Source: Candidatus Obscuribacteraceae bacterium (GTDB taxonomy: Bacteria > Cyanobacteriota > Vampirovibrionia > Obscuribacterales > Obscuribacteraceae). Taken from it: 64,000 bases of DNA. Numbering within the stretch: position 1 is the first letter of the stretch; every line of letters begins with the position of its first letter. A program made the position numbers. Positions 33,001 to 36,000 of the stretch are shown piece by piece. The stretch lies in contig JBGAHS010000008.1 of assembly GCA_044226015.1 (NCBI GenBank), positions 509,462 through 573,461 of the forward strand, in the 5' to 3' direction.

Positions 33001-36000
33001 TGGTTTCAATGTGTGTTTTCTGAACAGGAATACCTCTGGCATCTCGTCGCGTGATATCTGCAATGCCGCCGGAAATTTGCTCATTTAGCCGCAGCTCAAC
33101 ATTATTACCAAGGCTGAGATAGACAAGATTCAGGCCTTTTACACCCAACTTGTCCTCACCAGCAAGCTGAAGATTTACCTCTTCATGCTCAATATCAAAA
33201 TTTTCCGGCATTTGCTCTCCCCTCGAGGCAGACGCCCAACCCTCAATTCGAGTCTATAAATCGAAGGGCGCAAATACATCCGTAAAATCCCCACTATCGA
33301 TGTGGTCAGGGATAAGTTTATTGTCATTTGCTTGAAAAAAAAATCGGCGGGACAGGATTTGAACCTGTGGTGCTTTTTACGGTCTTGTTTTACAGACAAG
33401 TGCGATCGTCCTCTCCGCCACCCGCCGCCATACTCTTAAATTTCCTCCTGTAATTGATTGGGCTTACTCAGCTCAAAACAGATAACACCATATATGGTGC
33501 CGACGGGCGGATTCGAACCGCCAAAACGCTAGTTCTTAGCCAGCGATGTCTGCCACTTGCATCACGTCGGCAAAATCCCGAAAGTCAGATTCGAACTGAC
33601 ACTGAACTCGGCTTAAACGAGCCGCCTCCTGCCGTTGGGCTATTTCGGGGCATCGCAAAATCGGATCCCGCGAGCATCGTGAAATCAGATCCCGCTAACT
33701 TCGCAAAATCGGATCCCGCGAACATCACAAAATCGGATCCCACGAACATCGCAAAATCGGATCCCACGAACATCGCAAAATCGGATCCCACGAACATCGC
33801 AAAATCGGATCCCGCAAACTTCGCAAAATCGGATCCCGCAAACTTCGCAAAATCGGATCCCGCGAACATCACAAAATCGGATCCCACGAACATCGCAAAA
33901 TCAGATCCCACGAACATCGCAAAATCAGATCCCACGAACATCGTGAAACCGCCTCTCTGAGCGGCTAGGAATCAGATCCTAATCAGAGAACGATTCGAGC
34001 GTTTGTCATGTCCGACAAGACAATGGTTCAAACCAAAAGTTCAATAGAGATAATACAGCAGCATGATAAAAATCCTCCAAAGGGCTCATGATGAGACTCA
34101 AGACCTCGTCGCGAGCAGAGAAATAAGATTACTTCAAAGAATACTTGAACTTCACTTCACTACGACGAGACAGCGCCTAAGCTAAATAATAGCTTGGGAG
34201 AGGCGCCACGAGGCTCAGCAGTAGTGTATTCATCTTGTTCATGATTTCATCATAGCATCATAAACGAATTGATCAATAGCAAAATCACGAAGCATGACTA
34301 TTTATTTCTCGTCTCTTCTGACTTGATCTTAGCCACTGCAGATTTGAATTTAGCAACTTCATTAGTCAAACCAAACTCATTCAACTTGTTCGCAACCAAT
34401 TCAATACATTCCTCAGACCTGCTCGAAATTGCGGGAGTCGCCGCGAGCGACTTCGCAAATCTCTCAGCATCAATGAGTTTGCCTGTCGCCAATTCACCAC
34501 TGAGAATCATCGAAGCATACTGACTTATCTCCATCCATAGCGGATTTGATTTTTCTTGTTTGCTTGTGCTGATGCAATAGAAATTCTCAGGCGTTTGAGA
34601 ATAGAAGCCGTGATAAAAACCTTCCGGCACAAAACGATGGTGGAGAGTTGCAGGCAGAGCGGCACGGAGCTTATCGGATATTGCGTAGAGATAAACAGAA
34701 TCAAAAATCGAACAAATTCTTGCTATTCGCAAAGATTTTTCATCCTGAGGCAATCCATCAAACAAACGCAAATCTGGAACACTCACTTCAAGATCATGGT
34801 CTGAAATAAAGCGCGCCATCATTACGACCGACTTGGAAGTAGAGCCGGCAGGAAAAGCGGCAGCATGTGCATTGTTGGCGGACCGAATGGCAGCATCTAC
34901 GCTAGCTCTGAACTTTTCCCTGACACCGCTAACCAGTTGATTATTACGATCAAACCCTGGCAAAAACGCTTGTTCATTGAGAATACGCATCTCGCCCTTC
35001 GGATTTATTTCCAAAAGAACTTGCATCTGCCCCGGAACATCTGCCACCCAGGAATTAGATAAGTCCCGCGAAACCTTGCTATACCAGGACCACCAGCCGC
35101 CCTTTGACGAACGATCTTCCCGGGTTATACCAGCCGGAGTAATCATCAAAGTCCCGCCATCCTCTTTTGATTCTTTTAAAAGATCTTTCTTAGTTTCACC
35201 TTTGATGAATAGATGTTGTCCGAAACCAACTGCTTTGATTCCAACACTACAGTTATCGTATGCTGTAATGTCGGAACCGCCAAACGCAAGGTCGTAATAG
35301 CTAGCAGCCCCCTTTAGAGTGTAGCTACCATCAGTGTTAAGTATCGCCTTGATGTGTGCCTCTTCAACTGCCTGAGACAACGCAGGCTGAGCTTGCTGAA
35401 AGAGTACGAACAAAGACAATGCGAATGAACTCGCAAACCTCGTATTCATATTCTCCTCCCTTAGATTTTCTTCTTAAGCACAAACCAATTAGTCTGCTTA
35501 TCTGTAAATATTTTGCAGTCACCAATACTTATTAGCCTGCCAGTTTTGCCGTCGCGGTACCAGCCCTCGCTCCAGGGTCCCATATCCGTATAAACTGCGT
35601 CTTCGACTCCCATTTCGACTAGATCTACGCCAAATTCGTTAAAAGTAATTTCTGTCCTACTTTCTATTACGGCAGCCGAGCCATCCTTTAGGAGGGCAAT
35701 GCATCGCCTCTGAAAATGCGATTTATCAACAAAGCTCTCCGCATGTCCACTCTTAACTACTTGAAACTGTTGAAAAAAAGATTCTTGCTTGGACTTCAGG
35801 CGCGCTATAAAATCCGAATTGAGACTAGCACCACTATTGGTATCAAATATCTTGCCTTTACCCGCTTCCATTTCGAGGGCACCGCCCATTTTCTTGTCTA
35901 TCAGGTTCTCGTTAAAAACGGCACCGTGACTGGAATAGAGCCCACAGAGACCGCCTTGTTGACTTGTGAATGCAGCAGGAATGCACAACAAAACATTGGC

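Follow-up and report, generated by a model that had tools for sequence, protein, structure and literature searches.

Classical leader-peptide attenuators include those of trp, leu, thr and pheST. In mycobacteria, leaderless attenuators have been described in which a short ORF is rich in cysteine codons, the polycysteine sORFs (Canestrari et al., 10.1101/834739). Supernumerary tRNA genes are exemplified by the trn operon of Anabaena PCC 7120, an L-array of 26 genes with many specificities that lies on a plasmid and is controlled via direct repeats at its promoter; 23 of the 26 tRNAs are charged in vivo, as seen on acid gels, a method that does not identify the amino acid (Santamaria-Gomez et al. 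2021, PMC8421152). Streptomyces coelicolor has a type I tRNA-Leu(CAA), and its own LeuRS charges type I tRNA-Leu and requires the 5-nt loop, while the E. coli enzyme does not charge it (Fan et al. 2019, PMC6614811). Among the Lactobacillales, Streptococcus and Oenococcus have a tRNA-Leu(IAG) (10.1101/2023.09.19.555891; PMC13249217), a C1-G72 form of tRNA-Tyr has been described for CPR bacteria (PMC5370408), and redundant phage tRNAs with altered anticodon loops have been put forward as a reserve against tRNases (van den Berg et al. 2023, PMC10264068).

The locus described here lies in a stretch of 64,000 nucleotides from a Candidatus Obscuribacteraceae bacterium (the window). A preliminary description had pointed to the short variable arm and the A34 anticodon of its tRNA-Leu genes as the distinguishing traits. 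Both are present, but neither is peculiar to the cassette: tRNA arrays of several phyla, phages and the Anabaena trn operon carry the short-arm family too, and AAG recurs there. The unusual trait is the putative leader-peptide switch upstream of the cassette.

The tRNA genes and their short-arm family

ARAGORN and Rfam agree on all three tRNA genes, Leu(UAA), Leu(AAG) and Tyr, that had been called in the window (Table 1), and the short variable loop is borne out as well, with 5 nt in both Leu genes compared to 11-17 nt in the five housekeeping tRNA-Leu of genome G000. That these genes differ from the short Leu genes of the C10 array is true of the AAG gene only, because the window UAA gene and the tRNA-Leu(CAA) of the C10 array have one D-arm type in common. 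As a group, the cassette Leu genes are short-arm genes of array type, redundant with a full housekeeping set, and position 37 is A in 39 of 41 of them, compared to G37 in the housekeeping NAG genes. The housekeeping tRNA-Tyr is G1-C72, unlike the window copy; at all 16 loci read (three of which come from duplicates of a genome), the leader-linked tRNA-Tyr combines C1-G72 with a long arm, and a housekeeping-type tRNA-Tyr was also found in each of five lone-Tyr genomes tested. The tandem repeat between the switch and the tRNA genes has no second copy in the genome, and none was seen upstream of other cassettes.

TABLE 1 Features of the window cassette and its upstream region (positions count from the first letter of the window)
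Feature	Position	Strand	Description
Promoter-like site	34249-34276	-	-35 TTGATC, extended -10 TGcTATGAT, 6 nt before leader ATG
Leader ORF	34177-34242	-	21 codons, MNKMNTLLLSLVAPLPSYYLA, 6 Leu and 2 Tyr; homologues in all 40 complete elements
Segment 1	34212-34226	-	Leader codons 6-11; predicted 5' strand of helix A, partner of segment 4 when ribosome-free
Helix B	34172-34207	-	Predicted hairpin across leader end and stop codon
Segment 4	34158-34171	-	Strand common to the exclusive helices A and C; homologous to tRNA-Gln 5' acceptor strand in G068
Segment 5	34104-34120	-	Predicted 3' strand of helix C, closing a tRNA-sized domain
SD and mini-ORF	34041-34078	-	SD GGAGG at 34074-34078, 7-codon mini-ORF MLLYYLY at 34041-34064; SD placement kept in relatives
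24-bp tandem repeat	33651-33943	.	12.2 copies, in switch-to-tRNA interval; lineage-specific
tRNA-Leu(UAA)	33576-33649	-	Short arm, second short-arm sequence type, C1-G72, G37, CCA not encoded; ARAGORN and Rfam
tRNA-Leu(AAG)	33495-33571	-	Short arm, A34 at 33537, loop CUAAGAA, CCA encoded; ARAGORN and Rfam
Palindrome over 3' end of tRNA-Leu(AAG)	33486-33499	.	Member of genome-wide repeat, 70 matches
tRNA-Tyr(GUA)	33344-33427	-	Long arm, C1-G72, followed by run of 9 U; ARAGORN and Rfam

The cassette tRNAs are probably charged by the LeuRS and TyrRS of the cell, of which G000 encodes one each; a second LeuRS or TyrRS was thereby rejected. The AAG gene retains A14, A15:U48, G18G19, A20a and A73, all the Leu identity elements given in PMC9976931. 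Leucine charging is nonetheless not guaranteed, since the E. coli LeuRS rejects a natural type I tRNA-Leu (PMC6614811). ARAGORN calls four Leu genes in the trn operon of Anabaena, all of them short-armed (75-78 nt), and the UAA gene belongs to the short-arm family of the window; with 23 of 26 tRNAs reported as charged, at least one short-arm Leu tRNA is therefore charged there.

The family pattern matched 10 of 107 genomes of the order, in five genera, and had no match in a reversed-pattern control. These comprise nine Leu(+Tyr) cassettes in four genera, which matches the earlier count, and one mixed array in G068. The gene orders TAA-CAG-CAA-GAG-TAG-Tyr (G059 and G062) and TAA-CAA-AAG-CAG-Tyr (G063) were likewise recovered, and the Leu-only cassette is real. 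Gene number is three in the window, three to six in related cassettes and 13 in G068; with three genes, compared to the at least 20 of many specificities that define an L-array, the window cassette is not L-array-like. A wider search placed the short-arm family at 44 genome loci, among them loci of Acidobacteriota, Verrucomicrobiota, cyanobacteria and Clostridia, and at 13 viral loci; most of these lie within ordinary tRNA arrays. Short-arm AAG genes were found at loci L061, L084, L092 and L105; one of the 13 viral loci matched by the pattern has such a gene. G000, G059 and G062 share a CP-ATP-grasp/alpha-E/transglutaminase operon downstream of the cassette. A dedicated partner enzyme was rejected, as no protein neighbor is common across genera.

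The suggestion that AAG had replaced GAG fits G063, whose AAG gene shares 91% identity with the GAG gene of G062 and G059 and departs from it mainly in the anticodon loop. It is less certain for the window AAG gene, which is 78% identical to that of G063, is nearer to the TAG and CAA genes and, judging by sequence, may have arisen separately. All eight cassette GAG genes have C33, and all six short-arm AAG genes have U33 and the loop YUAAGAA, which fits the YUAMGRA motif of Streptococcus pyogenes TadA. A TadA-like gene at C1:1232019 scores 120.7 bits over a partial stretch, with a cut-off of 150. Both AAG cassettes are without GAG and without TAG genes, as expected if I34 reads U, C and A. A metatranscriptome contig (run X1, depth 7) covering 33448-33673 has G at 33537, the A34 position, with U33 unchanged, and it carries four other differences, so that the G could also come from a GAG allele of another strain. 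We consider it likely that A34 of the window gene is inosine; TadA would probably make the edit, and the one gene would then read CUU, CUC and CUA.

The leader ORF, its helices and its cargo

A leader ORF lies about 530 nt upstream of the window tRNA genes, and such a leader was found at all 10 loci with the tRNA family in the 107 genomes searched. Its homologues have 17-21 codons and are open in all 40 complete elements. Among 24,269 small ORFs of G000, at least six Leu codons occur in 2.3%, and at least six Leu with two Tyr codons in 0.09%. The promoter pattern has two matches compared to 2.3 expected by chance and is weak alone; all 40 homologous leaders have an extended -10-like box 6-9 nt ahead of the ATG. 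From this arrangement we infer a leaderless transcript whose 5' end lies at, or barely ahead of, the leader ATG. The switch region and the Leu genes are covered by RNA contigs of one metatranscriptome, and the missing cover over the flanking genes and the repeat carries no evidential weight. Further downstream, a strong SD stands at the corresponding place in seven of the nine Leu-type or mixed leaders examined. A mini-ORF of Leu and Tyr codons only is seen in the window element alone, and together with its SD it may serve as a second sensor or be what the switch acts on as its output.

RNA structure was evaluated on 11 aligned leaders (alignment A1), for which RNAalifold predicts helix B over the stop codon together with helix C. 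Helices A and B pair 89.8% of the cells of this alignment, with double changes at four pairs, and helices C and B pair 91.2%, with double changes at seven. None of 500 shuffles reached either fraction; slid registers gave 16-52%, a control biased in favor of the structures, which were derived from the tested sequences themselves. Helix A is the weaker of the two: alone it has one pair with double changes, and in genus g15 it is no better than codon-shuffled controls in 11 of 12 leaders (fraction 0.30-0.60). In computed folds, helix A forms in the nascent RNA and helix C once codons 1-12 are blocked. In many elements, that of the window among them, helix C dominates full-length folds even with no ribosome present, and the switch must therefore be kinetic.

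The origin of the alternative strand is suggested by G068. In its second leader, segments 4 and 5 form the acceptor stem of a genuine tRNA-Gln, whose gene begins 8 nt past the stop codon; in its first leader they close a decayed tRNA copy. By sequence comparison, the acceptor stem of the first tRNA serves as helix C in G068, and a relic of such a stem does so elsewhere. No Rfam leader or T-box came near a gathering score in 33640-34320. Taken as a whole, the RNA element is very probably a functional switch.

The reach of this element extends beyond leucine cassettes. A search with model R1, trained on Leu and mixed leaders only, gave matches in 29 of 107 genomes and located new copies ahead of lone tRNA-Tyr, phosphoesterase and rtcB genes. 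Model R2 returned the same classes from matches in 38 of 107 genomes, of which 36 have a verified leader and hold 41 elements; the matches at G029:C3 and in G056 were rejected because there is no leader there. The 41 elements, a count that leaves out G075, G024:C41 and the short genus-g2 matches of R1, comprise nine Leu cassettes, two elements in G068, 18 lone tRNA-Tyr genes, 11 phosphoesterase genes and one rtcB. The phosphoesterase is a calcineurin-like metallophosphoesterase (phrog_547); one of its genes is broken, and two further phosphoesterase leaders lie outside the counts. No biosynthesis gene follows any of the 41 elements, whose cargo is tRNAs, the phosphoesterase and RtcB. A general rtcB regulon was rejected, with a leader at one of 30 rtcB loci examined (60 genomes carry rtcB). 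The leader stands at 11 of the 30 phosphoesterase loci examined, and an RNA-repair role of the phosphoesterase is unsupported by gene neighbors in 30 loci or in one Streptomyces phage.

Codon content follows cargo. At least six Leu codons are present in all eight Leu-cassette leaders compared to at most four in all 30 others, and at least two Tyr codons in all 24 leaders with a tRNA-Tyr compared to at most one in all 14 without (G017, whose 5' end is N, is omitted, and the two G068 leaders are counted apart); these counts overstate independence because the leaders are kin, and they amount to roughly five to seven independent contrasts. The tRNA-Tyr of G071 and G072 was confirmed by Rfam. In three genomes that hold a Leu leader and another leader, Leu codons number 7 versus 3, 6 versus 2 and 8 versus 2. 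Both Tyr codons and tRNA-Tyr are absent in G017 and G018. G064 has two Tyr codons and a tRNA-Tyr, though its element groups with Tyr-poor phosphoesterase leaders (support 89/93), and G019, with one Tyr codon and no tRNA-Tyr, is a partial exception. In the G068 leaders, codons for Arg, Leu, Pro and Gln are abundant, and the mixed array downstream encodes Gln/Pro/Ser/Leu/Arg/Tyr tRNAs. Phosphoesterase leaders have 7-11 ANN codons versus 3-7 elsewhere. In a blind test, a leader-only pattern had one metagenome match, a leader with seven Leu codons followed by short-arm Leu(GAG) and Leu(CAG). A test against random substitution gives a borderline result (P about 0.05) for the retention of Leu codons within the Leu class.

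Outside the order, matches of the RNA model in a class sample of 151 genomes have E values of 6e-4 or worse and are mostly short. There were none in 49 loci of other phyla, viruses and Anabaena, including the trn operon, and 10 viral matches of the leader pattern were rejected as chance. No leader is evident before the C10 array. Unrelated leaders, which model R2 does not match, stand ahead of blocks of the short-arm tRNA family in other lineages: L070, L076 and L085 have one with seven Leu codons and a classical terminator, followed by three Leu genes, and Leu/Ser/Tyr-rich leaders precede Leu/Ser/Tyr genes at L077/L083, L100, L101, L105 and L108. A comparable ORF is absent from most of the 39 of 48 other-lineage loci that show the head of the run.

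Proposed mechanism and signal

The reading that we favor, and that we think fairly likely from sequence and modeled folds, is an inducible backup-tRNA operon under ribosome-mediated attenuation, with codon-specific sensing and induction. Leaderless translation would begin at the leader ATG. As long as Leu and Tyr codons are read fast and the ribosome leaves, segment 1 would pair with segment 4 in helix A, with an OFF fold computed downstream. When charged tRNA-Leu or tRNA-Tyr is scarce, the ribosome would dwell on the leader, segment 4 would pair with segment 5 in the computed helix C, and the tRNA genes would be expressed. We infer this polarity, ON upon stalling, from G059/G062, G068 and the SD result below. 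The backup cargo is redundant with the housekeeping set but altered, with no long arm, A37 rather than G37, and C1-G72 in Tyr; in the window the Leu set is reduced to UAA and AAG.

How the OFF fold acts appears to vary. Rho is absent in 107 of 107 genomes, and Rho-dependent termination was rejected on that account. A U-tailed hairpin overlaps segment 5 in G059 and G062 only, and helix C would therefore be an antiterminator there; the window has no U-tailed terminator after the switch. In state C, SD exposure goes up in nine of 11 phosphoesterase leaders and in three of the seven tRNA leaders with an SD, and down in two of those seven. The OFF fold may thus act through an intrinsic terminator in G059 and G062 and through SD masking in the protein-gene versions.

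As to the natural trigger, tRNA destruction is quite possible but put forward tentatively, on the basis of the redundancy, the altered loops, the class II composition, the one rtcB locus with a leader and, in Anabaena, the joint induction of trn and rtcB. A wider and more speculative proposal is a ribosome-read response to tRNA damage, in which one attenuator RNA has been re-coded to sense loss of particular tRNA families and switches on the matching remedy. The attenuator would have been born from a leader ORF pairing with a tRNA acceptor stem, arm-less Leu and C1-G72 Tyr tRNAs would escape enzymes that attack normal class II tRNAs, and the phosphoesterase, when ANN-reading tRNAs fail, or RtcB would be alternative remedies. 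No attacking nuclease was found for the cassette tRNAs, and prokaryotic Schlafens were rejected as the attacker, as their reported cleavage is of tRNA-Lys or broadly in the T-loop and not class II-specific.

An attenuator can also be imagined that is a real switch but senses general ribosome slowing, by antibiotics or stress, with a codon bias that is inherited or set by RNA pairing. In Anabaena, ribosome-targeting antibiotics induce both the related trn operon and rtcB (PMC8421152), helix A should be blocked wherever on the leader a ribosome stalls, and the borderline retention of Leu codons and the phosphoesterase leaders without matching tRNA cargo agree with such a sensor. However, codon content shifts with cargo across classes while the helices stay, Tyr codons are lost together with tRNA-Tyr in G017 and G018 and present in G064 inside a Tyr-poor clade, and unrelated leaders of other phyla show a Leu/Ser/Tyr match of the same kind. 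General slowing seems unlikely to be the signal.

Starvation for leucine or tyrosine, with the extra isoacceptors rebalancing charging, is improbable. Classical and mycobacterial leaderless attenuators sense the amino acid (the latter per 10.1101/834739), and a stalling mechanism cannot separate amino acid shortage from tRNA shortage. Yet an extra tRNA supplies no amino acid, the 41 elements precede no biosynthesis gene, and Leu and Tyr have no common pathway, though both have class II tRNAs. Hardly credible is a decaying remnant of a horizontally acquired tRNA array with a non-functional relic as leader: the patchy spread (10 of 107 genomes), the reduced window cassette with a repeat expansion inside the unit and the first tRNA decayed to a stem would suit it, but the reading frame is open in 40 of 40 elements, the stems show compensatory changes, three genomes of the genus keep synteny, the TadA motif of the G063 AAG gene arises through changes in its loop, and RNA contigs cover the unit.

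Comparison with known systems

Within the full-text literature, which leaves subscription papers largely uncovered, we found no published case of leader-peptide control of tRNA genes or of a Leu-only tRNA cassette. Type I bacterial tRNA-Leu is already known (PMC6614811); new are the chromosomal family, the tRNA acceptor stem as a switch strand and the four cargo classes on one scaffold. If the favored reading of a codon-sensing backup operon is true, tRNA genes on a bacterial chromosome are under direct feedback control by the supply of the tRNAs that they encode, and the retention of redundant, oddly shaped tRNA genes by bacteria and phages has an explanation that can be tested. The RNA family is a natural experiment in which one scaffold carries varied codons and varied cargo, and the leader sequence would therefore predict which tRNA loss a gene answers. 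The leader codons also give a handle on the uncharacterised phrog_547 phosphoesterase.

The Anabaena trn operon shares with our cassettes the supernumerary tRNAs, the short-arm Leu family, a link to rtcB and a role in translational stress. Unlike that operon, the cassettes have two to five Leu genes plus Tyr and stand behind a leader ORF at a chromosomal site common within the genus. The type I tRNA-Leu of S. coelicolor likewise has a 5-nt variable loop and coexists with type II tRNA-Leu and a single LeuRS, but it is one housekeeping isoacceptor, whereas here a full redundant set is placed in a probably regulated cassette. As in the tRNA-Leu(IAG) of Streptococcus and Oenococcus (10.1101/2023.09.19.555891; PMC13249217), a Leu anticodon with A34 lies in a loop that fits the S. 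pyogenes TadA motif YUAMGRA. Theirs is a long-arm, 89-nt housekeeping tRNA tied to genome recoding; here the gene is accessory, short-armed and found beside a normal GAG gene. The nuclease-resistant phage tRNAs (PMC10264068) are similarly redundant with altered anticodon loops, but the tRNAs described here are host-chromosomal and have a putative feedback sensor.

With the mycobacterial and classical attenuators, the element shares a short leaderless ORF enriched in control codons, an alternative pairing of the RNA, one ribosome-read logic spread over many loci and SD masking as a possible output. It departs from them in several ways. Its targets are the tRNA genes that read the control codons, not amino acid pathways. 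Its switch strand is a tRNA acceptor stem or the relic of one. Finally, a single RNA family carries varied codon sets, and the canonical terminator is missing in most copies.

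Repeats within the window

Several repeats lie within the window. The 14-bp palindrome is found genome-wide, with 70 matches in the genome under study (C10:356250 and C2:1065 among them), and we regard it as a REP-like repeat. Hairpins resembling it are placed between the leader and tRNA-Tyr in many relatives. The 24-bp tandem repeat has this window as its sole locus in the genome. It contains units of a hairpin plus U, with four terminator-like matches, and its minus strand holds an open frame of 118 codons.

Features with coordinates (C, contigs of the genome under study; L, compared loci)
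Feature	Position	Detail
Palindromic repeat	window 33486-33499	14 bp
Tandem repeat	window 33651-33943	24 bp, 12.2 copies
Tandem repeat	window 25263-25556	period 123
Tandem repeat	window 55602-55794	period 45
Tandem repeat	window 63180-63343	period 82
tRNA-like call	C2:1321-1387	67 nt
Large tRNA array	C10:356333-358700
Deaminase gene	C10:353094-353585	3 kb upstream of array
Leu(UAA)-called gene	L011:405-477	genus g15
Phosphoesterase gene	L145:4476-5069
Phosphoesterase gene	L146:2786-3385
rtcB	L147:1906-3093	relative G059, contig C200
28-codon leader	L070:1236-1322

Other tRNA loci

The large array contains two short-arm Leu genes, both of other types, as well as tRNA-like genes not called by ARAGORN. 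On plasmid-like contig C2, positions 1-1400 hold small ORFs that recur, hairpins, and the tRNA-like call. In genus g15, the array genes that receive a Leu(UAA) call (L011, L012, and L013) have a class I scaffold, a purine at 32, and G37, and lack the Leu D-loop signature; their identity is doubtful.

Protein genes and leaders in other settings

The same switch, a leader ORF with mutually exclusive helices, also precedes a phrog_547/aq_1665-like phosphoesterase at the two tabulated loci and others, frequently in mobile islands and with leaders abundant in ANN codons (Ile, Thr, Asn, and Lys). It precedes rtcB at 1 of the 30 rtcB loci examined.

In Verrucomicrobiota records L063, L071, and L079, a long conserved noncoding stretch, probably a structured RNA, lies before Gln/Leu genes, ~500 nt upstream of the tRNAs. 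Among Acidobacteriota records and viral contigs, Leu/Ser/Tyr-rich leaders precede class II tRNA blocks at L077, L083, L100, L101, L105, and L108, with terminators at L083, L101, and L108. In the Kiritimatiellae/Lentisphaerae records L070, L076, and L085, a 28-codon leader with seven Leu codons occurs together with a terminator of textbook form and with tRNA-Leu genes of the short-arm type, three in number.
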